From an uncultured Enterobacteriaceae bacterium (GTDB lineage: Bacteria; Desulfobacterota; Binatia; Bin18), in the NCBI GenBank assembly GCA_964441775.1, contig CAYTVL010000005.1:160395-224394 (forward strand): a DNA stretch of 64,000 nt. The letters are read 5' to 3'. Shown here piece by piece: positions 1,952 to 19,191 of the stretch. Every line of letters begins with the position of its first letter. Position 1 is the first letter of the stretch. Under the pieces are notes generated by a model. That model had not been told where the DNA came from, did not search any database, and saw only the letters and a list, made by a program, of their open reading frames with translations. Both the position numbers and the translations under genes were made by a program.

Positions 1952-2281
1952 GTGCATGTGTTTCGATTTGTTTTGGGATTACTGTTAGGGATTATTCTTG
2001 GGTCGGGCGGAACAGCCTACTTCTTTTCAGTGGCGGGAGGAGGGGACTATTTATTGGCGTCAAGTCAACGTGTCCACAAACTAGAACAAGATCTTCAACG
2101 GGTGAGCCAAGAGCGAGACGTGGTGACGAAAAAACTGGAAGACACCACGACCCGCGTCCAGGAAATAGGGAACAAGTTTGAAGCGTTGGAGCGTCGCTTT
2201 CGCGCCCTTGAGGAGTCTTCCGGCAAACCCCCTCTAGAGAAACCTCAAGAACAGGGACACGACGCCCCTCCGGATGCGTGA
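1952..2281 (+). CDS. small membrane-anchored coiled-coil protein (hypothetical)
   Basis: 109-aa ORF with a GTG start preceded by AGAAAGAGG; one N-terminal TM helix (FVLGLLLGIILGSGGTAYFF) followed by a heptad-like charged coiled coil (LEQDLQRVSQERDVVTKKLEDTTTRVQEIGNKFEALERRFRALEE). Confidence 0.4.
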   Translation: MHVFRFVLGLLLGIILGSGGTAYFFSVAGGGDYLLASSQRVHKLEQDLQRVSQERDVVTKKLEDTTTRVQEIGNKFEALERRFRALEESSGKPPLEKPQEQGHDAPPDA

Positions 2282-2437
2282 GTAGCGTAAAAGATGGGAA
2301 ACGGGAGATGTAAGAGGGAAGAGGAAGAAATTTCTTTCTTGTTTGTTTTCTGTTTTACGTCTTTCGTCTTCTATCTCTCGTCTTAATGCTTCGCCTTCCG
2401 TCTTATATCTTCCCTCTTCCGCCTTTCCGTACAGGGC

Positions 2438-2467
2438 TTGACCCGCTCACCACACAGAAGCTATTAA
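2438..2467 (+). promoter_or_regulatory. sigma70-like promoter for tRNA-Pro (-35 TTGACC, 18-nt spacer, -10 TATTAA)
   Basis: TTGACC at 2438-2443 and TATTAA at 2462-2467, ~35 nt upstream of the tRNA 5' end. Confidence 0.4.
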
Positions 2468-2500
2468 ATGCAGACTATTGGCTTCAGGAGCGTGCCGCGT

Positions 2501-2577
2501 CGGGGTGTGGCTCAGCCTGGTAGAGCACACGGTTCGGGACCGTGGGGTCGCTGGTTCGAATCCAGTCACCCCGACCA
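2501..2577 (+). tRNA. tRNA-Pro (anticodon CGG)
   Basis: Cloverleaf read by eye: acceptor CGGGGTG/CACCCCG, D-arm GCTC..GAGC, anticodon stem CACGG/CCGTG with loop TTCGGGA (anticodon CGG), T-arm GCTGG-TTCGAAT-CCAGT, discriminator A and encoded CCA. Confidence 0.9.
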
Positions 2578-2636
2578 TTTTTCTCGTGAATTCTCCTCTC
2601 TTTGATCTGGCGGTCTCAGCCGAACATTGCTGAGTG

Positions 2637-3248
2637 ATGTACATGGTAGCCCTGTTGGTCATCATTCTCGCGTACCTATGTGGATCTATTCCTACTGGTG
2701 TCCTTATTGGCAAAAGGCTGGGGATCGATGTTCGCAAAGTCGGCAGCGGAAACATCGGCGCGACCAACGTTGCGCGCAGTGCAGGCAAGAAAGCGGGAAT
2801 ACTCACCCTCTTGGGCGATGCGGCCAAAGGCTTGATTCCAGTCCTCATCGTTCGCGCTCTTGACTTGGGCGACACCCTGCTCGCCTGCGTCGCGGTTGTG
2901 GCGTTCCTGGGTCATCTGTATTCGCCATTTCTGGGCTTCTCCGGCGGGAAAGGGGTAGCAACTGGGCTCGGCGTGTTCCTTGGGTTGGCGCCGCAAGCGA
3001 TTTTGCTTTCCCTCATCTTTTTTCTCCTTGTCTTCGCGGCAAGTCGGATTGTGTCGTTGGCGTCGCTAGCGGCAGCCGGCGCCACGCCGATCCTTTTGCA
3101 CGTGTGTGCTTATCCGCCATCACACGTGCTTGCCGGGTTTATCATTGCCGGGTTTATTATTGTTCGTCATCGTGAAAATATTAACCGTTTGCGCAAAGGC
3201 CAAGAGGCAAAGTTCAGCATCAAAAAGTCTTCGTCCCCTGCTGCTTAA
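2637..3248 (+). CDS. plsY: glycerol-3-phosphate acyltransferase PlsY (acyl-phosphate dependent)
   Basis: Polytopic membrane protein with the PlsY signatures LAYLCGSIPTG, SGNIGATNVAR and GGKGVAT. The start is ATG 2637 or 2643; the ORF track extends to a GTG at 2634. Confidence 0.85.
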   Translation: MYMVALLVIILAYLCGSIPTGVLIGKRLGIDVRKVGSGNIGATNVARSAGKKAGILTLLGDAAKGLIPVLIVRALDLGDTLLACVAVVAFLGHLYSPFLGFSGGKGVATGLGVFLGLAPQAILLSLIFFLLVFAASRIVSLASLAAAGATPILLHVCAYPPSHVLAGFIIAGFIIVRHRENINRLRKGQEAKFSIKKSSSPAA

Positions 3249-3348
3249 AAATATGGCGGTGCATGGAAACTAGGCAGCCAGTGCGAGAGAGGTAGGAGAA
3301 AAGTTGCTGTTTTTTCAGAGCAATTAAAGCAATAGACCGCTGCTGCCT

Positions 3349-3363
3349 TGGCACTAGTCTTGC
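3349..3363 (+). promoter_or_regulatory. sigma54 (RpoN) -24/-12 promoter, TGGCAC-N5-TTGC, upstream of glnB-glnA
   Basis: Exact TGGCACtagtcTTGCT match to the sigma54 consensus, ~150 nt upstream of the glnB start. Nitrogen-regulated glnB/glnA operons are classically sigma54/NtrC dependent. Confidence 0.6.
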
Positions 3364-3400
3364 TCGCTTACTCTTAAGCTGCAAACGCTACCAACGTTGA

Positions 3401-3865
<465 letters not shown>

Positions 3866-3916
3866 TTTATCAACGCAGATGAAGAGTCGCATTTCAGTGA
3901 AGGAGGATCGTAGGGT

Positions 3917-5329
3917 ATGACCCCGAAAGACGCAGTGCGTATGGCGCGCGAACAAAATGCCGAGGCAGTAGACCTCAAATTCATGGACCTGCTCGGCACA
4001 TGGCAACATTTCACCATTCCCTTGAGTGAATACGAAGAAGATATCTTCGAGGAAGGGCTCGGCTTTGATGGATCGTCGATTCGCGGGTGGCAGGCTATCA
4101 ACGCCTCAGACATGTTAGTGATACCTGATCCAGCCACGGCGGTCATAGACCCATTTTGCGCGGCGCCAACCTTGAGTTTAATATGCAACATTGTTGACCC
4201 TATCACCAAAGAAGATTATACCCGCGATCCCCGCAACATCGCCCGGAAAGCCGAAGCCTACCTGCAGTCCACCGGCGTTGGTGATGTGGCGTATTTTGGT
4301 CCAGAGCCGGAGTTTTTTATTTTTGACGATATCCGTTTCGACCAGAACTCACATGAATCGTACTATCACGTTGATTCTGTCGAAGGTGTTTGGAACTCTG
4401 GCCGAAACGAAGGCCCGAATCTCGGCTATAAACCTCGCTACAAAGAAGGCTACTTTCCAGTCCCACCCATTGACTCCCAGCAAGACATCCGCACTGAGAT
4501 GATCCAACTCATGGAGAAAGTGGGAATTCGCGTTGAGAAACATCATCACGAGGTGGCCACAGCCGGGCAAGCCGAAATCGACATGCGTTTCCTGCCGCTC
4601 GTGAAGATGGCCGATGCCCTCCAGTGGTACAAATACATTGTCAAAAACGTCGCGAGGAAACATGGCAAAACGGCGACGTTTATGCCCAAGCCGATCTTTG
4701 GCGACAACGGCTCCGGTATGCACACCCATCAATCGGTCTGGAAAGGTGAGAAGCCTTTGTTTGCGGGAGATGGATATGGCGGCATGAGCGAATTCGCGAT
4801 GCATTACATCGCCGGCATCATCACGCATGCGCCAGCTCTTTGCGCCATCGTCGCGCCGACGGCGAACTCCTACCGTCGTTTGGTGCCGGGCTTTGAGGCG
4901 CCGGTGAATTTGGCGTACTCGTCTCGGAACCGTTCGGCTGCGGTTCGCATCCCTATGTATTCCGCTAGCCCGAAGGCGAAACGTATCGAGGTGCGCTTCC
5001 CCGATCCTTCCTGCAACGGTTATCTTGCCTTCGCCGCTATGTTGATGGCGGGTCTTGATGGCGTCGAACGCAAACTCAACCCTGGCAATCCGCTTGACAA
5101 AGACATTTATTCATTAACGCCGGAAGAACTGGAACATGTCCCCTCCGTCCCAGGCTCGCTGGAAGGCTCTCTGCAAGCACTGGAAAAAGATCACGCGTTC
5201 TTACTGAAAGGCGACGTGTTCACGGAAGACGTGATCCAAACCTGGATTGAGTACAAACGCGCCAAGGAGCTCGATCCGTTGCGCTTACGTCCGCATCCGT
5301 ACGAATTCGCCCTGTACTTCGATGCGTGA
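3917..5329 (+). CDS. glnA: glutamine synthetase, type I
   Basis: 470 aa with full-length GSI hallmarks ([54 protein letters not shown]). Located immediately downstream of glnB. Confidence 0.95.
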
Positions 5330-5356
5330 TCGTCTGCCACAGAACTGATCTCCGAG

Positions 5357-5392
5357 AGGGGGGAAGAGGAAACTCTTCCCCCCTTTTCTTTT
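5357..5392 (+). terminator. rho-independent terminator after glnA
   Basis: GGGGGGAAGAG-GAAA-CTCTTCCCCCC perfect 11-bp stem followed by TTTTCTTTTC. Confidence 0.75.
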
Positions 5393-5506
5393 CTAGAGGC
5401 TGGAGGTATACCTCCTCAGGCCCTTTACAGAGGAAAGAAGCGAGAGGAATTCCTACAGTGGGCCAAACGGTATCGGCTCACCTCGGCACGATAAGGAGAA
5501 CGCAGT

Positions 5507-6439
5507 ATGTTGCTCGACGGGAAAGTTGCGATTGTTACAGGCGCAGGCCGCGGCATTGGGCGTGAAGAAGCGCTGTTATTAGCCAAACATGGAGCAAAAG
5601 TCGTCGTCAATGACCTCGGCGGTCATTTTGACGGCACTGGCCAAGACACGCGCCCAGCCCAACAAGTGGTTGACGAAATCAAATCCGCTGGCGGCGACGC
5701 TGTCGCCAATTATGAAAATGTCGCCGACTTCAAAGCCGCTAAGCGCATCGTGCAGTGCGCCATCGACACTTTCGGGAAACTCAATATCTTGGTGAACAAT
5801 GCCGGTATCCTACGCGACCGCATGATCTTCAATATGGCGGAAGACGAGTGGGACGCGGTGATCGCCGTACACATGAAAGGCACGTTTAATTGTACGCGTC
5901 ACGCCTGTGAATACTGGCGCGAACAACACAAACTTGGCAACATTCTCAATGGCCGCGTCATCAACACGTCCTCCGACTCCGGTTTGCTCGGCAACGTTGG
6001 TCAGCCAAACTATGGCCCTGCGAAAGCCGCCGTCGCTACACTAGCGGTGGTCGTCGATGCGGAAATGCAGAAGTATGGCGTGACCGCCAATGCGATCGCT
6101 CCGGTCGCACGCACGCGACTCACAGTGGACGCAACCCCACAAACCGCGGCGGTCATGGCCGCCAAAGAAGGCGAATTTGACATTTTTGACCCCGCCCATG
6201 TAGCGCCCTTGGTGGTGTGGCTTAGCAGCGACGACGCCGCGAGCGTCCACGGAGAGGTGTTCCGCGTCGGCGGCGGCGTCGTGTGGCTCATGCAAGGCTG
6301 GCACACCGCCGGGACGGTCAGCAAGCGAGGCATGTGGGAACCAGCAGACCTCGGCTCGCAATTGAAAGTTGAACTCGCCAAAGGCGGGACTAAAAAAGAA
6401 TCCATGCAGGAAGTCTTCCGGGCGTTGAGGCAATCATAA
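5507..6439 (+). CDS. SDR family NAD(P)-dependent oxidoreductase
   Basis: N-terminal TGAGRGIG Rossmann motif, NNAG, and a catalytic S...Y..K arrangement (NTSSDSG...YGPAK); 310 aa with a C-terminal extension. Confidence 0.8.
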   Translation: MLLDGKVAIVTGAGRGIGREEALLLAKHGAKVVVNDLGGHFDGTGQDTRPAQQVVDEIKSAGGDAVANYENVADFKAAKRIVQCAIDTFGKLNILVNNAGILRDRMIFNMAEDEWDAVIAVHMKGTFNCTRHACEYWREQHKLGNILNGRVINTSSDSGLLGNVGQPNYGPAKAAVATLAVVVDAEMQKYGVTANAIAPVARTRLTVDATPQTAAVMAAKEGEFDIFDPAHVAPLVVWLSSDDAASVHGEVFRVGGGVVWLMQGWHTAGTVSKRGMWEPADLGSQLKVELAKGGTKKESMQEVFRALRQS

Positions 6440-6567
6440 CCTCCCACCCCACAGGAACATCTCCTGCGGTCTTATGGGTGGGGGGCAGGCAGACATGGAT
6501 TTGGTGTGGGGGAGGCGGTAGTATAACCTCTCTCCACCCGCCCGTTTTTATTTTTTAGAAAACTATC

Positions 6568-7068
6568 GTGATTCCACAAGCGCTGTTCAACGTCCTGATT
6601 ATCTGTCACGCCAACACCAGCCGCAGCATCATGGCGCACGCCTTCCTGAAAAAGCTGCTGTCGGAGCGTGATATCGACCACATTCGCGTGCGCTCCGGCG
6701 GTATCGCCATTTATGCGCGCGACAACATGATCCCCTCCCTGGATGCACGATTAGTCCTGCGAGAATACGGTATCGACCTGCGGGACAATGACCTCGCTTC
6801 CATTGACTTAAAACGGCATCGCCATCTCATCGATCAAGCGGATCTGATTCTGGCCATGACGCAGGAGCAAAAACAGATGCTCGACGCCTATCCGGAAGCG
6901 ACGGGCAAACCCGTGTTCACGCTTAAGGAATTCGCCGGAGAACAAGGAAACATCGACGACCCCGCCATGCAAGGCGAAGAGGTGTTTCGCGCCCGCATGA
7001 TTGAAATCCGCCGCTGTCTAGAAAAGTCCTTCGAGAATCTGCTAAGACTATCGCATGAACGCTTTTAA
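6568..7068 (+). CDS. low-molecular-weight protein phosphatase family (LMW-PTP / arsenate-reductase-like fold)
   Basis: P-loop C-X5-R(S) motif CHANTSRS at the N-terminus and a DP motif near the C-terminus; ~165 aa; GTG start. Confidence 0.7.
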   Translation: MIPQALFNVLIICHANTSRSIMAHAFLKKLLSERDIDHIRVRSGGIAIYARDNMIPSLDARLVLREYGIDLRDNDLASIDLKRHRHLIDQADLILAMTQEQKQMLDAYPEATGKPVFTLKEFAGEQGNIDDPAMQGEEVFRARMIEIRRCLEKSFENLLRLSHERF

Positions 7069-7471
7069 GAATCCCTCGGACGCCGTCATTCACGATATTC
7101 TTGCCAATCCCAAAACGATCGCCGTGGTCGGCTGCTCTCCAGACCCGGACCGGGACAGTCACCAAATCGCCGCGTTGCTCAAAGCCAAAGGCCACCGAGT
7201 TATTCCGGTGAATCCGACCAGTACGGAAATTCTCGGCGAACGCTGCTATACGTCCGTGCGCGACATACCAGAACCCGTAGACATGGTAGACGTTTTTCGT
7301 CGCCCGGAATTTGTGGACCAAATCGCCGGTGACGCCATTGCCGCCAAGGCGAAAATTTTGTGGCTTCAGCTTGACGTGATCAACGAAGCGGTTGCGGGTA
7401 AGGCGCAGGCCGCTGGCCTCACCGTGGTCATGGACCGCTGCCCGGCCATTGAGTATCGGCGATTGTTTTAG
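7055..7471 (+). CDS. CoA-binding domain protein (YccU/YneT-like)
   Basis: IAVVGCS...R..H.....L...G..V.PVNP pattern of the small CoA-binding Rossmann-like family. Its start overlaps the phosphatase gene end by 14 nt. Confidence 0.7.
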   Translation: MNAFKNPSDAVIHDILANPKTIAVVGCSPDPDRDSHQIAALLKAKGHRVIPVNPTSTEILGERCYTSVRDIPEPVDMVDVFRRPEFVDQIAGDAIAAKAKILWLQLDVINEAVAGKAQAAGLTVVMDRCPAIEYRRLF

Positions 7472-7480
7472 TTGTGCGCC

Positions 7481-8047
7481 ATGTCAAAACGTCCGCTCCA
7501 TAATCTCCAACCCTGGCAACGGCTCGACTCTGAGACGGTCTATACGTGTCGGATTTTTTCGCTGCAGAAGAATCGCAATCGTTCCCCACGCGACGGACGC
7601 GAGCACGACTTCTTTGTCTTGGAGAGTGGAGACTGGGTCAACATCATCCCGGTCACGCCGGACGATCAAGTGGTCTTGATCCACCAGTACCGACACGGGG
7701 TCGAAGAGTTTACTTTAGAAATTCCCGGCGGCATGGTCGACCCGCATGATCCGTCGCCTTTGCACGCTGCCCGCCGTGAGATGCAGGAAGAAACCGGCTA
7801 CGACTCGGAGGACGTGGTTCTCCTGGGCGCTATCCACCCGAACCCCGCCATTCAAGGGAACCGCTGCCACACTTTTCTGGCGCGGAACGTCGAGAAGCGC
7901 TTCGAGCTCCAGTTCGATACGACTGAGGAGACCGAGGTCATTCTCGTCCCTCGCGTACAGCTTCCGGAATTAGTGCGCCAAGGGAAAATTACCCATGCGC
8001 TCGTCGTCACGGCATTTTACTGGTTTACTTTGTTCCAACAGTGCTGA
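7481..8047 (+). CDS. NUDIX hydrolase (ADP-ribose pyrophosphatase-like)
   Basis: Nudix box GGMVDPHDPSPLHAARREMQEETGY (G-X5-E-X7-REUXEEXGU). The ATG at 7481 is preferred over the TTG at 7472. Confidence 0.8.
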   Translation: MSKRPLHNLQPWQRLDSETVYTCRIFSLQKNRNRSPRDGREHDFFVLESGDWVNIIPVTPDDQVVLIHQYRHGVEEFTLEIPGGMVDPHDPSPLHAARREMQEETGYDSEDVVLLGAIHPNPAIQGNRCHTFLARNVEKRFELQFDTTEETEVILVPRVQLPELVRQGKITHALVVTAFYWFTLFQQC

Positions 8048-8170
8048 TGCCGCACCCCAGTCCTTCCGGTTCCAGCTCTAGTAGACTACCACAACGAAGA
8101 TGATGGGAGCGCGACCGTCTTGGTCGCACTTTTCGCGAGCGAGACGCCCGCGCCCCAATGTGGAGCACTA

Positions 8171-8635
8171 CTACCGTTTGTCACGAGAAGCAGCCAGCAG
8201 CGCGTGAAATTGCGCCTCGGTCGGCGCTTTTTCTATGCTGGGAAGCGCAGCACTCAAACAGTCCCAGGGCTGCGCGCTGCCGCTCCATACCTGCACGGCA
8301 GGTTGGAACTGGCTGGGCTCATCTAGACTAGCAGCCCACAGTCCTTGCAGGTCTAGGACCAGCTCCGCTTGAATAAAAAGCGGAGAGCCGCAGGCTGAAC
8401 AAAATCCCCGGCTCACCACCCTGCCGCTCTCCGCTTTGATGCTGTGGTATGTGCTTTGTCCCGTGATGCTCAACGCCGTTTTCGGGACATAGAGCACAGG
8501 GCAAAAGGCCCCGCCGCTCGCTCGTTGACAATCTCGACAGTGACAATTCCAAGAGAAGGCCGGGACCGCCGCGCATTGGTAGCGAATCGCGCCGCACGCG
8601 CAACCGCCGGTAAAGGGCACTCGCATAAGCAACAC
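8171..8635 (-). CDS. GFA family protein (glutathione-dependent formaldehyde-activating / CENP-V-like zinc domain)
   Basis: GGCACGAIRY...CHCRDCQRASG...CSACGSPLF Cys pattern diagnostic of the GFA/CENP-V domain. Confidence 0.75.
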   Translation of the reverse strand: MLLMRVPFTGGCACGAIRYQCAAVPAFSWNCHCRDCQRASGGAFCPVLYVPKTALSITGQSTYHSIKAESGRVVSRGFCSACGSPLFIQAELVLDLQGLWAASLDEPSQFQPAVQVWSGSAQPWDCLSAALPSIEKAPTEAQFHALLAASRDKR

Positions 8636-8705
8636 TCCTCCCTGCCCAGGTCCTTATCACTTCAAGTTGCGCAACAAAAGAGGCTGAAATTTTTGCGAAG
8701 GTGGC

Positions 8706-8728
8706 ACAGTTTGTGAATCATTCACAAA
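8706..8728. promoter_or_regulatory. perfect 11-1-11 palindrome AGTTTGTGAAT-C-ATTCACAAACT, candidate operator ~60 nt upstream of the porin gene
   Basis: Seen directly in the sequence. It is a 7-1-7 core TGTGAAT-C-ATTCACA, Fur/CRP-like in form but matching neither consensus exactly. Confidence 0.4.
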
Positions 8729-8786
8729 CTCGGGAGTGAAGATTTTCTGTCTTTCCCTTCAACTATTTGAATTGACTGGAGGCGCG

Positions 8787-10091
8787 ATGCCAGTGTTCTC
8801 GGCCCGAACGTGGAGAAGGAGTTTTTGTGTCAGAACTCTGACACAAGGAGGGGTAGGACTGACACTGCTGCTGTCCTCAGTGGCTGTTTTTGCAGGCTCC
8901 AATCCTCCTCTTGCTTCACAAGATAAAGAACTTATCAAACAGTTGCTCACTCGTATTGATCAGTTAGAAGGACGCCTAGCGGAAGTAGAAGGAAAACAAG
9001 CTGCCGCTCCTCCTCCACAGTCGGCACCCCCGGCCAATACAGCAACGGCAAGTGAGGAGACTCATGAAGGAAGCCTGACTGACGAACCGATGATGCACGG
9101 GGGCATGCTCTCGTCTTCTCCCATGTTGCAGCTCCGCGGATTTGGCGACGTCCAGTATCACACGAGCAACCGGCACGGGGATCACAATGCCTTCACGCTA
9201 GGACAGCTCGATTTATTCATTAGCTCTCGGCTTTCCGACGAATTGAGCGTTGTCAGTGAAATGGTCGTGGAAGCAGATGAAAACAATGCGTTTGGCTTTG
9301 ACATCGAGCGGCTGTTGTTACAATATGCGCCCAGCGATCTCTTTAATATTGCCGCGGGTCGTTATCATACCGCCATTGGCTACTATAATACGGCCTACCA
9401 TCATGGCACGTGGTTCCAAACCGCTATTGGACGTCCCTTTATCTTTGCCTTCGAAGATGGAGGGGGACTTCTTCCCATTCACAACACCGGGGTGACTGTT
9501 TCTGGACGCATCCCCTTTTGGCGGCAACTGGGGCTACGGTACGTTGCCGAGGTAGGGAACGGACGCGATTACACGAAAGATCACGAACCAGTACAGAATG
9601 TCAATGACAACAACCACGGGAAAGCGGTCAACGTCGCGTTGTTTGCTCGGCCAGAGTGGTTACCGGGACTCCAGGGGGGCGTCTCTCTGTATCGTGACCA
9701 TCCTACTCCAAAAGGCTCGCCCAAGTTTGAACAAACCATTGGGTCGGCGCACCTCGTGTATGTCACGCCCACTTTCGAATGGCTGAATGAAGGCGTCCTG
9801 ATTCATCACAACCCGAGTGGATCGCACTCCACTAATACCACGGGGTTCTATACACAGCTTGCGCAACAATTTGGACTCTTTCGTCCCTATCTGCGCTATC
9901 AGTATGTGAATGCACCACAAAGCGATCCTTTGCCGCTTTTTAAGCAGGTGGGTCTGCGGCACGGCCCGTCGCTGGGCCTCCGCTATAATTTCAGCGATTT
10001 CCTCGCGCTCAAATTACAGTACGATTACACCATCATGCGTAAAGAGTCGGCCTTCAGCCAATTCACTGTGCAAGCCGCTTTTGCATTCTAA
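8787..10091 (+). CDS. outer-membrane beta-barrel porin, probably phosphate-selective porin O/P-like, with an N-terminal coiled-coil segment
   Basis: Signal peptide (GLTLLLSSVAVFAGS), then a coiled coil KELIKQLLTRIDQLEGRLAEVEGKQ, then a long alternating aromatic/hydrophilic region ending in a C-terminal Phe (QAAFAF) typical of OM beta-barrels. The size (~435 aa) and layout resemble the Porin_O_P family (recalled from memory, not searched). The start is taken at M18 after the spurious ORF-track extension. Confidence 0.55.
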   Translation: MPVFSARTWRRSFCVRTLTQGGVGLTLLLSSVAVFAGSNPPLASQDKELIKQLLTRIDQLEGRLAEVEGKQAAAPPPQSAPPANTATASEETHEGSLTDEPMMHGGMLSSSPMLQLRGFGDVQYHTSNRHGDHNAFTLGQLDLFISSRLSDELSVVSEMVVEADENNAFGFDIERLLLQYAPSDLFNIAAGRYHTAIGYYNTAYHHGTWFQTAIGRPFIFAFEDGGGLLPIHNTGVTVSGRIPFWRQLGLRYVAEVGNGRDYTKDHEPVQNVNDNNHGKAVNVALFARPEWLPGLQGGVSLYRDHPTPKGSPKFEQTIGSAHLVYVTPTFEWLNEGVLIHHNPSGSHSTNTTGFYTQLAQQFGLFRPYLRYQYVNAPQSDPLPLFKQVGLRHGPSLGLRYNFSDFLALKLQYDYTIMRKESAFSQFTVQAAFAF

Positions 10092-10116
10092 GTGGGGAGA
10101 AGGGGTGGGTAGAACA

Positions 10117-10647
10117 ATGAAGACCATATTGAAGGAGCTGTCTCTTCGGCTTTTCCTTCTGCTGCTCTGGGGGCTCCGGCTTGAACAGGCTGAAGCGCAA
10201 ACAATGTCAAGCCTTGGGGCTTCTCCGTCCGCGTCTGCGCCATTAGCCATTATCGTCAACAAGAAAAATCCGATCGACGGCGTGAGCTTCGCTGAGTTAC
10301 GAGCCATTTTTCTGGCCGAGCAGGGGCATTGGTCGGATGGACACAGCATCACCTTAGTGATGCGGGACCCTGCACAACCCGAACGCGAGGCTGTACTCCG
10401 CCAGATTTACCACATGGAGGAAAGCGATCTTAATCGCCACTTCTTGCAGTTGACATTCACTGGCGCAGTGCAAACCGTTCCAAAGATGTTATCCACCACT
10501 GTCGGGGTGCGCAAATTCGTGTTCAACGTTCCCAGCGCCATCGGCTACGTGAAGCTCACCGACGTTGATGACTCTGTCAAGGTGTTACACGTAGATGGGC
10601 ACTTACCCGGTGAATCGGGTTATCCACTAGTGCTTCCTCCGCAGTGA
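10117..10647 (+). CDS. PstS-like (PBP_like_2) periplasmic substrate-binding domain protein, short form
   Basis: Signal peptide; IIVNKKNPIDGVSFAELRAIF...IGYVKLTDVDDSVKVLHVDG...YPL resembles phosphate-binding-protein-family strands. It is only 176 aa. The ATG at 10117 is preceded by GGGGAGAAGGGG; the ORF-track N-terminal extension (from 9910) overlaps the porin and is rejected. Confidence 0.6.
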   Translation: MKTILKELSLRLFLLLLWGLRLEQAEAQTMSSLGASPSASAPLAIIVNKKNPIDGVSFAELRAIFLAEQGHWSDGHSITLVMRDPAQPEREAVLRQIYHMEESDLNRHFLQLTFTGAVQTVPKMLSTTVGVRKFVFNVPSAIGYVKLTDVDDSVKVLHVDGHLPGESGYPLVLPPQ

Positions 10648-10709
10648 CACACCGCCACGGATCCCCTTCTGCCTGCCAAGATGGAGATGGAAATGCAGAA
10701 AGAACCGCG

Positions 10710-12833
10710 ATGACACAAAATCCAATTTCTCACCGCTGGAGTTTTCCGTTCGCATTTATTCTGATCGGACTCGTTGTCGGCGGCGTGGGCGGCTTTGCTC
10801 TGTACAACCTCCACCAGACCAATCATACGACCCAGCACATGTATGCCGGGTCAGTCTCACAGTTGGATCTCATCGGCGAATTGCAATATCAAACACAGGA
10901 AGCCCGGCGCAGCGTGCAATATGCACTGACCACAACAGACGCCAATCTGCAAATGGAGTATGTCGATCAATCCCGCGCTGCGGACGCCTATGTGGCGGCG
11001 CTGCACGACCAACTTCAAGCGCGATCGCACACGCCGCAGTTAGATCAGCTAAGAGAGCAGTTTCATCACGACTGGGCTGCATATCTGGAAGTTCGCAACC
11101 GGGTGAGCGCCCTTATCCTCGAAGGAAATAGTACAGAAGCGATCGCCCTTGACCAACGTGAGGGAGAGCCAGCGTTCACTCACGCCCGCAATGATTTGCA
11201 GGAAATTAAAATCTCCTATAAGGCGCAAGCCGAACAACAGGTAACTCAAGTAGAAAAGATTTCCTTCCGCACCCTCGTGGAGCTGGGGATTATTTTGTGT
11301 CTGACCCAACTCTTCGCGGCCTTTGCTGTGAAGATGGTGCAGAAGGGACAAATGCTGCATGCCGTGCAGCAGTCCGAAGCCCGCTTGCACGACGTCATCG
11401 AATCTATTGACGAGGGAATGTTTGTCGTTGATCGCGCCGGCAACATTGCCTTATGGAATCAGGCAGCGGAGCGCAGCATGGAGCGCTCTCGCGACCAGGT
11501 TTTGGGTCACCCTCTCCTCCATGCCTTCCCAGAGGTCACCGTCACCGCTTTACAGAGACTCATCAACGATGCCCTTGCGAGTGGACAAGCACGGGCCTTC
11601 GAAGCCCTCCCCCTTGCCTATGGACGAGACATTCGGGAGTTCGCAACGCGAGCTTTTCCTTTTGAAGGAGGGACTACCGTCTTTTTGCGCGATGTCACCG
11701 AGAACCGACGGGCCGAACAGGCGCTCCATCAGAGCGAGAAGCGCTTTCGCTCGCTGATTGAAAATTCCTCGGACATCATCACTATTTTTGATGGAGACGG
11801 CGTCATTCAATACGAAAGCCCATCGATAAAACGCATACTCGGCTACGACCCAGAAGAGCCGCTTGGCCGCCGCCCGACAGACATCATTCACCCGGACGAT
11901 TTAGCGTCTGTGGAAGAAGCGTTCTCCACCCTAGAGAAAACAGAGGGGCCCCTCTCTCTGGAGTTCCGCGTCCGTCACAAAGATGGGTCCTGGCGAGTTC
12001 TTGAAGGCACGGGCAAGAATCTTCTCCGAGATACTGCTGTCGCCGGAATTGTTTTCAACTCTCGCGACGTCACCGAGCGCAAAGAAATCGAACGCCTCAA
12101 GGATGAACTGGTGTCGACCGTCAGTCATGAACTCCGCACCCCGCTCACCAGCTTGCGCGGCTTCGCTGAACTCATGCTCAAGCGCGACTACCCGTTAGAA
12201 AAACAACGGACGTTTCTCACCGTCATCCACACTGAAGCCACACGTCTGACCACGCTCATCAACGATTTTCTCGATATCCAGCGTATGGAATCAGGGCGCC
12301 AGACTTACTCCTTTTTTCCCCTCGACTGCACGCCCCTTTTCCGCGAGGTGCTGACCATCTTCACGACCGAAGACACGAAACACACGTTTAGTCTGAACGC
12401 GGAAGAATTCTTGCCGCTTGTGTCCGCCGACGCCGACCGTCTCCGGCAGGTGTTGACCAACCTGCTCTCCAACGCGATCAAGTATACCCCGCAGGGTGGG
12501 CAGGTCAGCATTGGCGCTCGACGAGACGGCGACGCAGTCTGTATCTCCATTACGGATCAAGGCATCGGCATCTCGCCGGAAGCGCTCCCACGGCTCTTTA
12601 GTAAATTTTATCGAGTCGACAATACCGCCACACGGAACATCGGAGGCACGGGCTTAGGGCTTGCGTTAGTCAAAGAGATTATCGAAGCACACAACGGAAG
12701 AATCTGGGTCGACAGTCAAGTCGGCCACGGCTCAACATTCTCTTTTACATTGCCAATCGCCGCGCTCGATCACGCTGACGACGGGGCAGCCATTGAGCAA
12801 TCGCCGCAATCGTCGGACAGCACCCTCTTGTAA
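10710..12833 (+). CDS. sensor histidine kinase (2 TM with four-helix-bundle periplasmic domain, 2 PAS, HisKA, HATPase_c)
   Basis: TM1 FAFILIGLVVGGVGGFALY, periplasmic helical domain, TM2 LVELGIILCLTQLFAAFAV, PAS regions, H-box VSHELRTPLTSL, N/G boxes (LSNAIKYT, DQGIGI, GGTGLGL). An alternative GTG start at 10644 overlaps the upstream stop (GTGA). Confidence 0.85.
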   Translation: MTQNPISHRWSFPFAFILIGLVVGGVGGFALYNLHQTNHTTQHMYAGSVSQLDLIGELQYQTQEARRSVQYALTTTDANLQMEYVDQSRAADAYVAALHDQLQARSHTPQLDQLREQFHHDWAAYLEVRNRVSALILEGNSTEAIALDQREGEPAFTHARNDLQEIKISYKAQAEQQVTQVEKISFRTLVELGIILCLTQLFAAFAVKMVQKGQMLHAVQQSEARLHDVIESIDEGMFVVDRAGNIALWNQAAERSMERSRDQVLGHPLLHAFPEVTVTALQRLINDALASGQARAFEALPLAYGRDIREFATRAFPFEGGTTVFLRDVTENRRAEQALHQSEKRFRSLIENSSDIITIFDGDGVIQYESPSIKRILGYDPEEPLGRRPTDIIHPDDLASVEEAFSTLEKTEGPLSLEFRVRHKDGSWRVLEGTGKNLLRDTAVAGIVFNSRDVTERKEIERLKDELVSTVSHELRTPLTSLRGFAELMLKRDYPLEKQRTFLTVIHTEATRLTTLINDFLDIQRMESGRQTYSFFPLDCTPLFREVLTIFTTEDTKHTFSLNAEEFLPLVSADADRLRQVLTNLLSNAIKYTPQGGQVSIGARRDGDAVCISITDQGIGISPEALPRLFSKFYRVDNTATRNIGGTGLGLALVKEIIEAHNGRIWVDSQVGHGSTFSFTLPIAALDHADDGAAIEQSPQSSDSTLL

Positions 12834-12984
12834 ATGATTCCCGTAATCAACCGATAGCGTGAATAAAAAAAAGAAACGTACGATGGCAAGCGTCGATAGA
12901 GACAGGGAACCATGTAAAATGAGGTAACAATGTGAAGTGTCTGGCCATGCCAAGTAAAGGATTCCGCATCGTGAGGTCTGCGTG

Positions 12985-13566
12985 ATGCAAGTGAAAAACG
13001 GTCTGCTTCTCCTTGGAAGTATAGTGTGGTTACTCGGGATGAGCGCAGGGACGAAAATCATGCTTGACTACGATTACACTCCGGGAGCAACCGTCTCCCT
13101 TCCTCGCCAGTGGCCTGCTGACGCTCAGATTCAGCCCCTTCCAGGTGAGGCGACGCTCGTGATGGCCGCCCATCCCCACTGCTCCTGTACGCGAGCAAGT
13201 CTTGAAGAGCTTTCCGTACTGATGACACACGCACAAGGGCGGCTGAGCGCGTATGTGCTCTTCTTAAAACCCTCAGAATTTTCTGAAGGTTGGGAAAGGA
13301 CCGATCTTTGGGAACACGCCGTCGCCATCCCTGGGGTGCGAGTTATTGCCGATGATGAGGGAAAAGAAGCTCGTCACTTCCACGCCACAGTTTCGGGCCA
13401 GACCTTGCTCTACGATGCACACGGAGAGTTAGTGTTTAGCGGAGGCATCACCGAATCCCGTGGCCACAGTGGAGACAATGCTGGTCGTGACGCTATCCTT
13501 TCGTTCTTGACAAATGAAACAGCAGAACGAAAGGGCGCTTTTGCTTTTGGCTGCTCTCTTTTTTAA
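12985..13566 (+). CDS. membrane-anchored TlpA-like thioredoxin-fold protein with an atypical H-x-H-C-x-C motif (hypothetical)
   Basis: N-terminal TM helix; LVMAAHPHCSCTRASLEEL aligns by eye with the WCxxC region of TlpA/ResA-type proteins but with CxC; C-terminal ...YDAHGELVFSG resembles the Trx-fold beta4. Function unknown. Confidence 0.4.
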   Translation: MQVKNGLLLLGSIVWLLGMSAGTKIMLDYDYTPGATVSLPRQWPADAQIQPLPGEATLVMAAHPHCSCTRASLEELSVLMTHAQGRLSAYVLFLKPSEFSEGWERTDLWEHAVAIPGVRVIADDEGKEARHFHATVSGQTLLYDAHGELVFSGGITESRGHSGDNAGRDAILSFLTNETAERKGAFAFGCSLF

Positions 13567-13608: not shown

Positions 13609-16275
13609 ATGACAAGTTTCACTGCCTTAGATGAAACGACTGAGCAACGAAGTCTCGTCCTTTTCCAGGAGCATCAGCAAAAGATTTTCAAGCGGACGGA
13701 TCGGTTATTTGCCTGCCTGTTGCTGTTTCAGTGGTGCGCCGGCATTGCTGCCGCGTATTGGCTTTCTCCGCTGACGTGGACTGGCGTCTACAGTCAAACC
13801 CATTTACACGTCAAGGCCGCGTGGATACTCGGTGGCGGGATCATCAGCTTTCCTGTTCTGTTAGCGTTCTTTCAGCCTGGAGCGCTATTAACCCGTCACA
13901 GCATTGCTATAGCCCAAATGCTCATGGGCGCTCTCCTCATTCACTTGACCGGCGGACGCATCGAGACGCATTTTCATGTCTTTGGTTCTCTTGCTTTTCT
14001 GGCTTTCTACCGAGATTGGCGGGTGCTAATCTCAGCCACGGTGGTGGTGGCTGCGGATCATTGTGTACGGGGCCTCTACTGGCCCCAGTCGGTCTTTGGC
14101 GTGTTGACGGCAAGCCCCTGGCGTTGGCTTGAGCATGCTGGGTGGGTGATTTTCGAGGATGTCTTTCTCCTCGCTTCCTGTATTCAAGGAGTGGAGGAAA
14201 TGCAGGAGATCGCTGAGCGACAAGCCCAGCTTGAGGCGAGCAATGATCATGTCCGTTCTCTTAGCGCTTCATCGCCGATCGGGGTTTTTCAAATCAACTC
14301 GGCAGGGAGCTGTAGCTACACGAATGACCGGTGGTATGAAATTGTCGGATTGACGACGGCGGAGAGCAGTCAAGCAAATTTGTCCACACTCATCCACTCC
14401 GAGGACCGCGAGGCCGTTCTTAAGGATTGGACACGGGCAGTGGCGACAAACCGTGAAGTCTCGGTTGAGTTTCGTCTCTTGAGGCGATCGGGAGGAATTC
14501 GTTGGGTCCGGGTTCGTGGCACGCCACTTCAGAGCGCTAATAAAAAGGGATTCGACGACTATGTCTGCACGATTGAAGACATTACCGCACAAAAGCATGC
14601 TGCTGAGGAGTTACGCGAGGCAAAAGAAGCCGCTGAGCAAGCCAGTCAAAGCAAATCGGCTTTCTTGGCGACCATGAGTCATGAGATCCGCACCCCGATG
14701 AATGGGGTGATTGGCATGACTGGACTCCTCCTTGACACCCCGCTGACCGAGGAACAACGCGACTATGCCGAGACCGTGCGGCACTCCGCCGACGCGTTGC
14801 TGACCATCATCAACGATATTCTCGACTTCTCCAAAATAGAGGCGGGCAAATTAGAATTGGAGATTATCGACTTCGATCTCCGCACTGCGGTCGAAGAAGC
14901 GGTCGATCTGTTCAGCAGCCAAGCCCTGCATAAAGGGCTAGAACTGGCGTGCTTAATTCACGCCGACGTCCCCGCCGCCCTGCGCGGCGACCCGGGTCGG
15001 GTCCGCCAGATCTTGGTGAATTTGATTGGGAACGCCATCAAGTTCACGGCGCAGGGAGAAGTGGTGGTCGAAGTACGAACAAGTAAGCCCGACTTCCTGT
15101 GCGGGAAAAATCTCACACCAGCGGCCTCTACCGAGCTGTCTACTCCTCTCACCTCGATACGGCTGTACTTTTCCGTGACCGACAATGGGATTGGTATCCC
15201 GGTCGACCGACGGGACCGGCTTTTTCAATCGTTCTCGCAAGTGGACGCGTCCACTACGCGCAAATATGGCGGCACAGGCCTGGGGTTAGTCATTTGTAAA
15301 AAACTCGCGGAGGTCATGCAGGGCGAAATTGGAGTAGAAAGCGAACCCGGCAAGGGCAGCACTTTCTGGTTTACTGTTCAACTTGAGCAACAGCCTCCAA
15401 AGACTGCCTCCGTGGAAGCGCTTGCTGATCTCCGAGGGATGCACGCGTTAATTGTGGATGACAACGCCACCAATCGGCGCATTTTTCGCCGCCAATTAGC
15501 CTCCTGGGGCGTTACCTCGGAGGAAGCTGCGGATAGCCCGCAAGCGCTCACCCTCTTACGAGAGGCGGTTGCTCAGGGACGTCGCTACGATTTCGCCTTC
15601 CTTGATTTCATGATGCCGTCCATGAACGGGATAGAATTAGGCCGCATGATCAAGGCCGACCCCTCCTTAGCTCACACGAAGTTGCTGCTTCTTACCTCTG
15701 CTGGACAACGGGGAGATGGACAGCTTGCACGCGAGGCAGGGCTTGATGGATACCTCACCAAACCCGTGCGGCAAACGCATTTGTGGGGATGTCTCACCAA
15801 AATCATGGGCGGTGTCTCTTCTGGAGAGTCCACGCCAACATCGCTCGTCACTCGCCACACGGTAGAGGAAAAAAAGACGCACAGTCGTTTACCCATCTTG
15901 ATTGCGGAGGATAATCCGGTCAACCAAAAATTGGCGGTGCGGTTATTAGAAAAATTGGGCTATCGCGCAGATGTCGCGGGCAACGGACTTGAGGCCGTTG
16001 CTGCGGTAGAATGCATTCCCTACGCTGCCATCCTTATGGACTGCCAAATGCCGGAAATGGATGGATTTGAAGCCACCAGAACTATTCGCGGCAGAGAGGA
16101 AGACACCACTACTCATATCCCTATCATTGCCATGACCGCCAACGCCATGCAGGGGGATAAAGAACGCTGCATGGAAGCGGGCATGGATGATTATGTCTCC
16201 AAACCGATCAAGCCGGAAACCTTGAAAACCGTCCTGGCCCAGTGGCTTGCCCCTATCAAGGAGAAGGCGGCATGA
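13609..16275 (+). CDS. hybrid sensor histidine kinase (multi-TM N-terminal sensor, PAS, HisKA, HATPase_c, two receiver domains)
   Basis: H-box [12 protein letters not shown]-box GNAIKFT, G-boxes DNGIGIP/GGTGLGL. REC1 ([12 protein letters not shown]...[11 protein letters not shown]) and REC2 ([12 protein letters not shown]...[12 protein letters not shown]). The N-terminal ~190 aa is polytopic, with a conserved-looking [19 protein letters not shown]...[13 protein letters not shown] segment. Confidence 0.85.
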
Positions 16276-16355: not shown

Positions 16356-18395
16356 TCAATCCGCCGTCGCATACTCCGCTACTGGCAGCGCCTGGGGTTT
16401 GCGCAGCACGCGGAACCATTCGCGTAGGGATTCGGCCACGATGACGAGCACGAGCGCCATGAACAGGCCGGTAATCACAGCGTCGAGCCGGTCATTAAAA
16501 ATAAGCGTCTGCGTTTCCGCGATCTTCTCCTCTGGAACCTGACCAGCCGCCAACTTTGCCGAAAGATCAGCCGCATGGGAGAGGAACCCAATGCGGACGT
16601 GCGGGTGAAACAGCTTCTGGTATCCAGCAGTCATCGTCACCGCCAGCAGCCAGACCAGCGGCGTCAACGAAATCCAGGCGTAATGAGCTCGGCTGTTTTT
16701 CAACAAAATTGTCGTCACCACGCAAAGCGCAATCGCCGCCAGTAATTGATTAGCGATGCCAAAGAGCGGCCACAGACTGTTGATGCCGCCGAGCGGGTCA
16801 ATAACTCCTTGATAAAGAAAATATCCCCACGCGCCGACCATCATGCCGCTGGTGAGAATGACGCTGGGATACCAACTGGTGCGTCCCAAAGGAGCCCACA
16901 GTTGGCCGAGCAAATCTTGGAGTAAAAAGCGACCAACTCGCGTCCCGGCGTCAAGAGTTGTCAAAATAAATAACGCTTCGAACATGATGGCAAAGTGATA
17001 CCATAACGCCATCACCGCGCGCCCGCCAAGGGAGTTGGCGAAAATATGCGCCATGCCCACCGCTAAACTTGGGGCCCCACCGGTGCGGGCAAAGAGCGTC
17101 TTTTCGCCGATGTCCTGCGCCAACGTGGCCATTTGTTCAACGGTAACGGGAAAGCCCCAGCCCGTAATCATCGCCGTCGCCGCTTCCGCCGTAGCGCCGA
17201 CTACACCGGCTGGACTGTTGACGGCAAAATAGACGCCGGGCTCCAGCGCAGCGGCGGCGATCATCGCCATGATGGCGACAAACGACTCCATCAACATACC
17301 GCCATAGCCGATCATCTGCGCGTCGGTTTCATTTGACAACAGCTTCGGCGTCGTCCCAGAGGAGATGAGCGAGTGAAAGCCGGAAATCGCGCCGCATGCG
17401 ATGGTGATAAACGCAAAAGGAAAAACACCACCGGCGAAGATTGGTCCCGTGCCGTCTACGAATCGTGTCAACGCAGGCAAGTGAATCTCCGGCATCGTGG
17501 CCAGAATACCCACCGCTAACGCCACGACGGTGCCGATTTTGATAAAGGTGCTCAAATAATCGCGCGGGGCCAGCAGGAGCCACACTGGCAAGACTGAAGC
17601 GGCAAAGCCGTAGGCAATCACCATGAGGGCAATCTGGGGCCCACTAAATGTGAACCATGACGCTAGCGTCGGATGCCCATCGACCCACCGCCCCCCGACC
17701 AAAGCGAAAGCTAACAGCACAAGACCAATGATCGTGGCCTCAAGCACTTTATCTGGGCGCACGAAGCGCATGTACCAGCCCATCAGCAACGCGATCGGAA
17801 TCGTGGCGCCAACTGTGAAGGTCCCCCACGGGCTGCTCCGTAGGGCATTAGTCACCACCAGTCCCAAAACGGCGATGAGAATGATGATGATCATGATAAT
17901 GCTGATCATCGCTACGAACCCGCCGAGCGGACTAATTTCTTCCTTCGCCATCTGCCCTAGCGATTTACCCTCGCGCCGCACGGAGCCACAGAGCACGCAG
18001 AAATCTTGCACCGCCCCGCCAAGCACAACCCCGGCGAGAATCCACAGCGTGCCAGGTAGATAGCCAAACTGGGCCGCGAGCGTAGGACCAATCAACGGCC
18101 CAGGACCGGCAATCGCGGCAAAATGGTGACCAAATACCACCCAACGATTGGTGGGCACAAAATCGCGGCCATCATTGTAACGGATCGCGGGCGTTTCATG
18201 GGACTCATCGAGGGCGAAGACTTTGGCCGCGAGGAAACTACTATAAAACCGATAGCTAATGGCGTACAGACAGAGTGCGGCAACGACGAACCAGATCGCG
18301 TTAATGCTTTCTCCACGGCTGAGGGCGATCATGCTGATGGCCCAGGCCCCTCCCCCACTCAATACGAGCCACATCAGACGAGTCAGCCACTGCAT
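16356..18395 (-). CDS. cstA: carbon starvation protein A (peptide/pyruvate transporter CstA family)
   Basis: ~680-aa polytopic protein with CstA N-terminal signature (SINAIWFVVAALCLYAISYRFYS, FGHHFAAIAGPGPLIGP). Start taken at MQWLTRL (M23 of the ORF-track frame). Confidence 0.9.
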   Translation of the reverse strand: MQWLTRLMWLVLSGGGAWAISMIALSRGESINAIWFVVAALCLYAISYRFYSSFLAAKVFALDESHETPAIRYNDGRDFVPTNRWVVFGHHFAAIAGPGPLIGPTLAAQFGYLPGTLWILAGVVLGGAVQDFCVLCGSVRREGKSLGQMAKEEISPLGGFVAMISIIMIIIILIAVLGLVVTNALRSSPWGTFTVGATIPIALLMGWYMRFVRPDKVLEATIIGLVLLAFALVGGRWVDGHPTLASWFTFSGPQIALMVIAYGFAASVLPVWLLLAPRDYLSTFIKIGTVVALAVGILATMPEIHLPALTRFVDGTGPIFAGGVFPFAFITIACGAISGFHSLISSGTTPKLLSNETDAQMIGYGGMLMESFVAIMAMIAAAALEPGVYFAVNSPAGVVGATAEAATAMITGWGFPVTVEQMATLAQDIGEKTLFARTGGAPSLAVGMAHIFANSLGGRAVMALWYHFAIMFEALFILTTLDAGTRVGRFLLQDLLGQLWAPLGRTSWYPSVILTSGMMVGAWGYFLYQGVIDPLGGINSLWPLFGIANQLLAAIALCVVTTILLKNSRAHYAWISLTPLVWLLAVTMTAGYQKLFHPHVRIGFLSHAADLSAKLAAGQVPEEKIAETQTLIFNDRLDAVITGLFMALVLVIVAESLREWFRVLRKPQALPVAEYATAD

Positions 18396-18420
18396 GGTTG
18401 CCCTCCCTTTTTCTTCCCGC

Positions 18421-19191
18421 CTATTGTTTCTTGGCGACGAGCACGGCGATCGGATAGTCAAAGAGGATACTTTGCCCTTTTCGCCGAGTGTTCATCCCCA
18501 AGCCATCCGTATCCAACGTTTCCAGAAAAATCTGACGAATGGTGTCCGCATCACCAGGATTGGGGAAAGAGCGTTGTAGGGTGTCTTCCAGGTCAGATTC
18601 TACACGGTAGAATTTTTTACGAGGCGCAGGGAATCCAGTGCGCGCAAAAAGCGCTTCCAGCTCTGTCAGCGGTAGTCCTCGTACATGTGAAGGGTCGCGC
18701 AGTTTTTCCATGCGGTTATACGCTGCGGCTTTTTCCAAGTCCGGCGAGGCGGTCACGTCGATCACCGCCACCGTGCCGCCAGGAGCACAGACACGCTTCA
18801 TCTCCTCTAACACCGCCCCGGGATCGAGAAAATGATGGAAAGCATAGCGAGACACAACGATGGAGAACGAGGCGTCAGCGTAAGGTAGAGGCTGCACGTC
18901 GCCAACCCGCCAACTCACGTTCGTCAGTCCTTTGCTTTGCTGCAGCGTGCGAGCGTGTTCAATCATCGCCGGCGTGAGATCGATACCAGTCACGTGCCGC
19001 GCCACCTGAGCAAACGCGCAGACGACCAGTCCGGGACCGCACGCGACATCGAGTACGGTGTCTTCGGGACCAGCCCCGGTGAACTCAACCACTAGCTTCA
19101 GCGCCTCTTCATCTTTGATGCCTGGCGCGGTAGCGAACGGAACAGCTTGTTTGGTGAATTGGTCAAGAATGAGGTCTTGGTGGGTGGACAT
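18421..19191 (-). CDS. class I SAM-dependent methyltransferase (Methyltransf_11-like)
   Basis: Motif I VLDVACGPG, motif post-I/II, and PGGTVAVID. Confidence 0.75.
   Translation of the reverse strand: MSTHQDLILDQFTKQAVPFATAPGIKDEEALKLVVEFTGAGPEDTVLDVACGPGLVVCAFAQVARHVTGIDLTPAMIEHARTLQQSKGLTNVSWRVGDVQPLPYADASFSIVVSRYAFHHFLDPGAVLEEMKRVCAPGGTVAVIDVTASPDLEKAAAYNRMEKLRDPSHVRGLPLTELEALFARTGFPAPRKKFYRVESDLEDTLQRSFPNPGDADTIRQIFLETLDTDGLGMNTRRKGQSILFDYPIAVLVAKKQ

Follow-up and report, generated by a model that had tools for sequence, protein, structure and literature searches.

Candidate envelope-spanning sensory cassette combining a porin-like protein, a free-standing PstS-type lobe and a four-helix-bundle histidine kinase

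Three neighbouring genes, designated g1, g2 and g3, are found between positions 8700 and 12833 of the stretch of DNA analysed here, a window of 64,000 nt from contig CAYTVL010000005.1 of an uncultured bacterium. They specify, respectively, an outer-membrane porin-like protein, a small secreted protein related to one half of the phosphate-binding protein PstS, and a sensor histidine kinase with a periplasmic four-helix bundle (4HB). On balance we favour the interpretation that these genes are a copy of a conserved cassette, a self-contained sensory unit spanning the cell envelope, in which g2 acts as an accessory co-sensor on the 4HB while the porin supplies or gates the stimulus. An earlier note on this DNA had proposed a candidate module for the sensing of phosphate-like oxyanions. 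The sensing-module half of that interpretation is well supported by genomic context, while the signal of the cassette is probably not phosphate.

Only a minority of bacterial sensor kinases have been matched to a signal, and the Acidobacteriota, although dominant in soils, have received hardly any attention on this point. The cassette is widespread, is often present in several copies, and connects one extracytoplasmic input (porin, half binding protein and 4HB) to four output chemistries. In kind it is a variant of the sensing systems that rely on an accessory protein in the periplasm, and the literature searched contained general precedents but no description of a cassette of this kind.

A conserved cassette with exchangeable outputs

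A scan of one genome per GTDB species with a g2 profile yielded 80 loci, 78 of which could be assessed for synteny. The sampled loci are mostly from Acidobacteriota, others being labelled Binatia, Gemmatimonadota, Dormibacterota and further groups. A g1 homologue is located directly upstream of g2 in 77 of the 78 assessable loci, and a gene whose product has a g3-like 4HB lies directly downstream in 61; the synteny of the trio, which the earlier note had suggested examining, is thus conserved in related genomes. All 63 of the 4HB partner proteins, that of the window included, contain a 4HB_MCP_1 domain, in which Q85, E86, R88, N101, Y106, R111, D114 and W144 are among the invariant residues. 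The outputs behind this constant domain are HisKA/HATPase in 57 proteins, GGDEF plus EAL in four, and the MCP signalling domain (MCPsignal) in two, with PAS domains or fused receivers occurring in a minority.

In its commonest form the cassette has four genes, an OmpR-type regulator being added to g1, g2 and the kinase. At 43 loci a kinase of approximately 490 residues is followed immediately by the regulator gene, which in most cases overlaps the kinase stop codon. The g1, g2 and sensor genes are co-directional and tightly spaced in the manner of an operon. In the flanks of these 43 canonical cassettes no transporter or other gene beyond the four recurs in more than nine loci, and on this count flanking genes were discarded as a clue to the regulon; genes for the PstCAB permease and ATPase are likewise not conserved beside them. 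The linkage of g1 to g2, the constant 4HB and the lack of a conserved transporter all support the view, already put forward in the earlier note, that the periplasmic protein is paired with a membrane sensor instead of an ABC transporter.

The 16 loci without a 4HB partner (L016, L020, L022, L028, L033, L035, L039, L042, L046, L047, L055, L062, L065, L066, L074 and L077) all carry a conserved Ser/Thr kinase gene beside the g1 homologue, upstream of it and in either co-directional or divergent orientation. The product, of about 920 residues, consists of a kinase domain, one transmembrane helix and a PD40/Tricorn-like (propeller-like) extracytoplasmic domain of about 560 residues. Of this kinase the 4HB loci show a single trace, a 46-residue fragment some 6 kb downstream of g2 at L041. 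The Ser/Thr kinase is a second, mutually exclusive partner class of the g1-g2 pair. A constant extracytoplasmic set with swappable outputs argues that g1 and g2 form a sensory input module, rather than being target genes of the kinase.

Individual metagenome-assembled genomes contain two or three copies of the cassette (L007/L016, L044/L051/L077, L014/L039, L020/L067 and others), and the family has therefore grown by duplication within genomes. The cassette kinase gene of L007 (8417-9820) possesses an in-frame stop codon, making it either a pseudogene or the site of an assembly error.

The three genes and their products

The description of g1, g2 and g3 as co-directional genes was borne out, all three open reading frames (ORFs) being intact (Table 1). 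The most likely start of g1 is ATG 8787, which is preceded at a distance of 5 nt by GGAGG, and public gene calls concur with the resulting 434 residues. The ATG of g2 at 10117 has a purine-rich Shine-Dalgarno (SD) sequence before it, although gene callers prefer GTG 10105 (180 residues). A good SD had been claimed for each gene; this stands for g1 and g2 and fails for g3, since the sequence preceding GTG 10644 (CTTCCTCC) contains none. The claimed GTGA overlap between g2 and g3 does exist, with GTG 10644 overlying the g2 stop codon (TGA, 10645-10647), but it would be lost were g3 to start at the publicly called ATG considered below. Because the sensor gene in relatives often begins 0-5 nt past the g2 stop, or overlaps it by 4 nt, translational coupling of the two genes appears plausible. 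Terminator-like sites between the three genes were not found beyond chance expectation.

Table 1. Location of the cassette genes, the segments of their products, and the nearby palindrome
Feature	Position	Strand	Description
g1	8787..10091	+	Outer-membrane 16-strand porin-like protein, 434 aa; signal peptide, periplasmic coiled coil, disordered linker; no Pfam family
g1 residues 43-72	8913..9002	+	Predicted coiled-coil helix, DcaP-like periplasmic stalk (AF2 and coiled-coil profile matches)
g1 linker, residues 73-108	9003..9110	+	Pro/Ala-rich, predicted disordered
g1 residues 113-434	9123..10088	+	Predicted 16-strand beta-barrel ending in Phe; includes L3-like loop 195-231 (YHH...FED)
g2	10117..10647	+	Secreted single-lobe PstS-like protein, 176 aa; alternative start GTG 10105 (180 aa)
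g2 residues 83-90	10363..10386	+	R-D-P-A-Q-P-E-R, at the position of the PstS anion-binding R-x-x-x-S-G-T; Glu89 invariant
g3	10644..12833	+	Sensor histidine kinase, 729 aa from GTG 10644 or 707 aa from ATG 10710
g3 4HB_MCP_1	10815..11258	+	Periplasmic sensor, residues 58-205, between transmembrane helices 1 (32-57) and 2 (206-233); conserved in all 63 partner proteins
g3 PAS domains (two)	11379..12077	+	Cytoplasmic, residues ~246-356 and 377-478; absent from the canonical ~490-aa kinases of related cassettes
g3 HisKA and HATPase_c	12099..12758	+	HisKA residues 486-551, H-box SHELRTPL; HATPase_c residues 596-705
Palindrome 1	8708..8730	.	Perfect, AGTTTGTGAAT-C-ATTCACAAACT, 11-bp arms; intergenic, 57 nt upstream of the ATG of g1, with a divergent GFA-family gene on its other side

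The g2 protein has a signal peptide (residues 1-27, with cleavage between AEA and Q) and a mature part of approximately 140 residues, the folded lobe of which extends from residue 41 to 176. It scored 20 bits against PF12849 (PBP_like_2; cut-off 27) and 30.1 bits against TIGR02136 (PstS; cut-off 206.6), in both cases with the middle of the profile only. The profile of the g2 family matches PstS crystal structures, with an E-value of 5.7e-13 to 4exl, and always in the segment of lobe II. The AlphaFold2 (AF2) model, with a predicted local distance difference test score (pLDDT) of 85 and means of 86-98 in 10-residue blocks from residue 41 onwards, can be fitted to some 130 residues of PstS chains that are 240-330 residues long (Foldseek E ~1e-10 to 1e-9; TM-score ~0.6 normalised to the query and ~0.4 to the target). 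The aligned part, residues 74-189 or 86-225 of the PstS chains, is lobe II. Accordingly g2 is lobe II of a PstS-type protein standing on its own, without lobe I, and has a phosphate-binding protein of the PstS type, through its second lobe, as its ancestor. Profile search and structure prediction thus agree with the original description of g2 as a secreted part of the PstS/PBP_like_2 fold, and identify the half that has been kept.

With PstS/PBP_like_2 proteins (PDB 1twy, 4exl, 4gd5) g2 shares the framework motifs N-P-x-x-L, G-x-x-x-W and P-G-A-I-G-Y. It differs from them in being half the size, in having neither lobe I nor a hinge, in the lack of an ABC transporter partner, in scores below the Pfam and TIGRFAM cut-offs, and in its anion-binding motif. 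The lobe-II phosphate ligands of Escherichia coli PstS are R135, S139, G140 and T141. The PstS sequence R-x-x-x-S-G-T aligns with x-x-P-G-Q-P-E in the g2 family, S-G-T being replaced by Q-P-E; in the alignments to 1twy and 4q8r, R-E-x-S-S-G-T stands opposite x-E-P-G-Q-P-E. Within the family E89 is present in 53 of 53 sequences, P88 in 45, Q87 in 42 and R83 in only 14; E102, K123, D151 and K155 are further invariant residues of g2.

Homologues of g2 numbered 223 at E <= 0.001, and the best 120 of these are nearly all 160-192 residues in length. A library of 1.8 billion proteins gave 147 cluster representatives (50% identity, E <= 1e-30) which are nearly all about 150-200 residues long, the exceptions being some shorter ones that look like fragments and a small number of longer proteins. 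Since this length is kept across hundreds of homologues and the fold is predicted with confidence, g2 is not a broken gene, and the possibility of a pseudogene was ruled out. Its relatives are listed in the databases as "hypothetical protein" or, automatically, as [quoted passage not shown]; hundreds of short entries bear the latter name, and it is very improbable that they bind phosphate or work with an ABC transporter.

The g1 protein carries a signal peptide, ends in Phe, and has no lipobox cysteine. Its AF2 model (48 sequences, pLDDT 79) comprises the signal sequence, a helix (residues 43-72), a disordered linker (73-108) and a barrel of 16 strands (113-434), which upholds the initial view of an outer-membrane barrel with an N-terminal coiled coil and a terminal Phe. 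The family has more than 3,400 homologues, none of which has a name. The L3-like loop (residues 195-231) is very conserved, with H205, H206, W209, E223 and D224 invariant.

Among known porins the fold of the barrel is closest to that of OprP, and the earlier note had placed g1 in the OprO/OprP family. The window protein gave no match to Porin_O_P (PF07396) even at E <= 10, nor to any other Pfam family. Weak matches were obtained with 12 of 48 relatives (best E 3.4e-4), and the g1 family profile did not match OprP or OprO chains in the PDB at E <= 10. Because the window protein is unmatched, the matches of relatives are few and weak, and OprP and OprO are not found in the PDB search, g1 can be no more than distantly related to the Porin_O_P superfamily; with weak matches in only a quarter of the relatives, membership was dropped. 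The identity to OprP/OprO (PDB 2o4v) is 13%. These share the 16-strand porin fold with g1, and some g1 relatives are weakly similar to them in sequence, whereas g1 possesses an N-terminal coiled coil, an acidic, His-rich constriction loop and no linkage to pst or pho genes.

Across the family, residues facing the lumen average approximately +9.8/-11.3, as estimated from strand parity without model coordinates or residue-level superposition, which makes the figure an approximation. The L3-like loop, in which two His are invariant, has a net acidic charge (+1.2/-3.1), and strands 13-15 bear a conserved basic patch. This charge segregation would resemble that of the general porins, unlike the arginine ladder and lysine cluster of the OprP lumen, and, approximate as it is, speaks against a basic lumen.

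In architecture g1 is similar to DcaP of Acinetobacter baumannii (PDB 6eus), with which it shares a coiled coil, a proline-rich linker and a 16-strand porin, at 9% identity. The coiled coil of DcaP stabilises the trimer and extends far into the periplasm (10.1101/306035). DcaP is an anion-selective channel for dicarboxylate uptake with an arginine-rich constriction and without a link to an accessory protein or sensor. We consider that g1 probably forms a trimeric outer-membrane porin, with the coiled coil and flexible linker reaching into the periplasm.

In g3 the order of domains is 4HB_MCP_1, two PAS domains, HisKA and HATPase_c, with transmembrane helices at residues 32-57 and 206-233. The E-values of HisKA (4.7e-20) and HATPase_c (1.4e-35), together with the conserved SHELRTPL, place it among the classical HisKA-type kinases, and the domain matches and transmembrane helices corroborate the reading of g3 as a histidine kinase with a periplasmic 4HB. 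Scores of 327 against the PnpS model (cut-off 400) and 262.6 against the PhoR model (cut-off 334.2) were confined to residues ~355-704, which constitute a generic PAS-kinase core. The periplasmic 4HB of about 150 residues departs from the architecture of PhoR, which has no large periplasmic sensor.

No response-regulator gene adjoins g3. Receiver domains were detected by tblastn in the window, with one cassette OmpR-type regulator as the query, only in the hybrid kinase at 13609-16275, in agreement with the earlier observation that no cognate regulator stands beside g3 and that the next kinase is a hybrid with its own receivers. The same search disposed of an OmpR-type regulator elsewhere in the 64 kb. 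The missing regulator is a peculiarity of the window copy, as 43 related loci have one.

Proposed mechanism and competing explanations

In the scheme that we favour, g2 would dock on the 4HB of g3 and thereby set the balance of kinase and phosphatase activities. The dedicated porin would admit a specific solute, recognised by g2 alone, by g2 as a dimer, or by g2 together with the bundle; alternatively, g1 might hold or gate g2 by means of its periplasmic stalk. The signal would then run through the two PAS domains to the kinase core. In the window copy the phosphate might be accepted by an orphan regulator, or else by one of the receivers in the hybrid kinase that lies nearby. What the analysis shows are the folds and domain composition of the three proteins, the conserved linkage of their genes, the exchange of outputs behind a constant 4HB and the loss of the phosphate motif; that g2 touches the bundle, what the porin does and in which direction regulation runs are our inferences. 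If g2 is indeed a co-sensor, a type II binding-protein lobe standing by itself would have an adaptor function in signalling, and the sensory unit would include a porin of its own.

Parallels are offered by the systems in which complete binding proteins dock on 4HB sensors, such as TorT-TorS, XylFII-LytS, MBP-Tar, PstS-CtpL and GlnH-GlnX-PknG (PMC8050422). As in the cassette, a gene of the binding-protein superfamily lies beside that of a membrane receptor with a 4HB periplasmic domain, which is presumably its target; such a sensor follows g2 at 61 of 78 loci, and 16 others have the Ser/Thr kinase with its extracytoplasmic domain. The partners in these systems also include kinases, chemoreceptors, cyclic di-GMP enzymes and a Ser/Thr kinase system, and PstS itself signals to a chemoreceptor (PMC8050422). 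The known examples employ complete two-lobe proteins which clamp a ligand, whereas g2 is a single lobe without the ligand residues, and none of them includes a dedicated porin gene in the unit, as the cassette does.

Several points weigh against our interpretation. The linkage of g1, g2 and the sensor gene could also stem from co-regulation. Four-helix bundles can bind small ligands directly, without an accessory protein. The relatives are all from uncultured metagenome bins, mainly of Acidobacteriota. Lastly, the window copy is atypical in its additional PAS domains, in the regulator not being adjacent, and in the uncertain start of g3, which public gene calls put at ATG 10710 (707 residues), abolishing the overlap with g2.

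Functional trios, in which a barrel in the outer membrane acts together with a sensor that is periplasmic or a lipoprotein and with a kinase system of the inner membrane, are also represented by chitoporin/CBP/ChiS of Vibrio and by RcsF-porin-IgaA of the enterobacteria. Their components are unrelated in sequence to g1-g3 and do not form one compact cassette. Unlike g2, the CBP of the ChiS-CBP pair is a full two-lobe binding protein (PMC12704726).

A modest chance must be allowed to a second explanation, in which the cassette is an envelope-stress relay of the YfiBNR or Rcs type. Here g2 would be a ligand-free repressor or activator of the 4HB sensor, sequestered or released by the g1 stalk when the envelope is perturbed, and no small-molecule ligand would be involved. 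This would suit a g2 protein which has lost the other lobe and the ligand residues that binding proteins need, a g1 protein whose long coiled coil and flexible linker extend into the periplasm, and a cassette which is a closed unit without uptake genes. YfiR, too, is a single binding-protein-like lobe; it keeps an enzyme of the inner membrane repressed and is itself captured by a partner in the outer membrane (PMC4655355). Small periplasmic proteins of the type of DbfQ, a kinase modulator, respond to damage of the outer membrane (PMC12714742).

The YfiBNR (TpbB) system of Pseudomonas aeruginosa shares with the cassette a tripartite layout of outer-membrane, small periplasmic and inner-membrane signalling proteins. 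Its parts are otherwise different: YfiB is a Pal/OmpA-like lipoprotein, while g1 is a 16-strand porin without a lipobox cysteine; YfiR resembles a type I lobe (DUF4154), while g2 is a type II PstS lobe; YfiN, unlike g3, combines a PAS-like periplasmic domain with a GGDEF output; and the gene order differs. A relationship of g2 to YfiR/DUF4154 was rejected, there being no sequence match and no such protein in the top 60 structural matches. That g1 is a full 16-strand porin with an invariant constriction loop (the five residues named above) suggests a specific passage or binding site over an anchor, and the coiled coil of DcaP serves merely to stabilise the trimer (10.1101/306035).

It is improbable that g1 and g2 are simply cargo, that is, a porin and a periplasmic protein of uptake or structural role regulated by the two-component system, with their linkage reflecting the proximity of a regulator to its targets. 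Two-component genes do frequently adjoin their targets, porins are classically controlled by OmpR-family regulators, and an OmpR-type transcription factor belongs to the unit at the canonical loci. The g1-g2 pair is, however, also linked to chemoreceptors, GGDEF-EAL proteins and Ser/Thr kinases, which exert no direct control of transcription. That chemoreceptors, cyclic di-GMP enzymes and Ser/Thr kinases are not transcription factors argues against g1 and g2 being mere targets. Moreover the partner 4HB is constant, and the genes are arranged as one operon. Finally, no shared operator motif was found in the regions upstream of the g1 homologues of 75 loci, where the ribosome-binding site was the only k-mer in common.

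We assign a similarly small likelihood to the porin itself being the receptor of a TonB-independent trans-envelope device, in which the constriction, conserved and rich in His and acidic residues, would be occupied or perturbed, and this would be relayed through the coiled-coil stalk and the half-PstS adaptor to any inner-membrane partner with the fitting periplasmic domain. Were this true, the cassette would provide a portable "plug-in" input module for a kinase, cyclic di-GMP enzyme, chemoreceptor or Ser/Thr kinase, and in g2 nature would offer a case of a binding-protein lobe that functions by itself or, as a homodimer, restores a cleft.

That the cassette senses phosphate or a related oxyanion, with g1 as an anion porin like OprP, g2 as a binder like PstS and g3 as the kinase, is very unlikely. 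The weak Porin_O_P matches of g1 relatives, the genuine homology of g2 to PstS, the PnpS and PhoR scores of the kinase core, the conserved arginines R88 and R111 of the 4HB, and the direct binding of phosphate known for 4HB domains such as that of CtpH (PMC8050422) would all be in its favour. The claim of a phosphate-, phosphite- or arsenate-like ligand is nevertheless unsupported, because the half of the phosphate site that lobe I would contribute is missing, S-G-T has given way to Q-P-E with its invariant Glu and the Arg is not conserved, the lumen of the porin does not appear basic and its L3-like loop is net acidic, and neither a Pho box nor neighbouring pst/pho genes were found. In addition, the PnpS and PhoR scores lie below the curated cut-offs and concern only the generic core. 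Phosphate bound in the manner of PstS is thus an unlikely ligand, and the idea of phosphate would derive only from the ancestry of g2.

The earlier note had suggested a check for Pho-box-like direct repeats. Matches to the E. coli-type Pho-box pattern in the window were at chance level, with none upstream of g1, although the consensus of this lineage may differ; the region 8560-8900 contains no direct repeats. Taken with the absence of an upstream motif common to the 75 loci, these results led us to abandon Pho-box control. Among the window ORFs examined, which were the largest ones and the neighbours of the cassette, there are no pst or pho genes, pstCAB included.

Palindromes and surrounding genes

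The palindrome in the g1 promoter region (Table 1) is unique in the window and is absent upstream of the g1 homologues at the 75 other loci. It could serve as an operator for some regulator. A second perfect palindrome, TTGTGTCAGA-AC-TCTGACACAA with 10-bp arms, is located at 8825-8846 within the part of g1 that encodes the signal peptide, and the two have TTGTG/CACAA ends in common. The second could be another operator or, alternatively, a hairpin in the mRNA.

Between g3 and the hybrid kinase there is an ORF of 194 aa (12982-13566) specifying a protein anchored in the membrane by one N-terminal transmembrane helix, with an HPHCSC motif and no Pfam or NCBIfam family. The hybrid histidine kinase (13609-16275) contains PAS, HisKA and HATPase domains and two receiver domains, preceded by some 200 residues with multiple transmembrane segments and no family match; it is a possible phospho-partner of g3. 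Neither of these two genes is conserved beside other cassettes.

The surroundings (6568-7068, 1-8635 and 16356-34000) are ordinary chromosomal and housekeeping genes. They include the genes for P-II, glutamine synthetase, a short-chain dehydrogenase/reductase, a low-molecular-weight phosphatase, NUDIX and GFA-family proteins, LeuA, LeuB, IlvC, elongation factor G and valyl-tRNA synthetase, together with what we take, from reading the sequence, to be a CstA-like carbon starvation protein.

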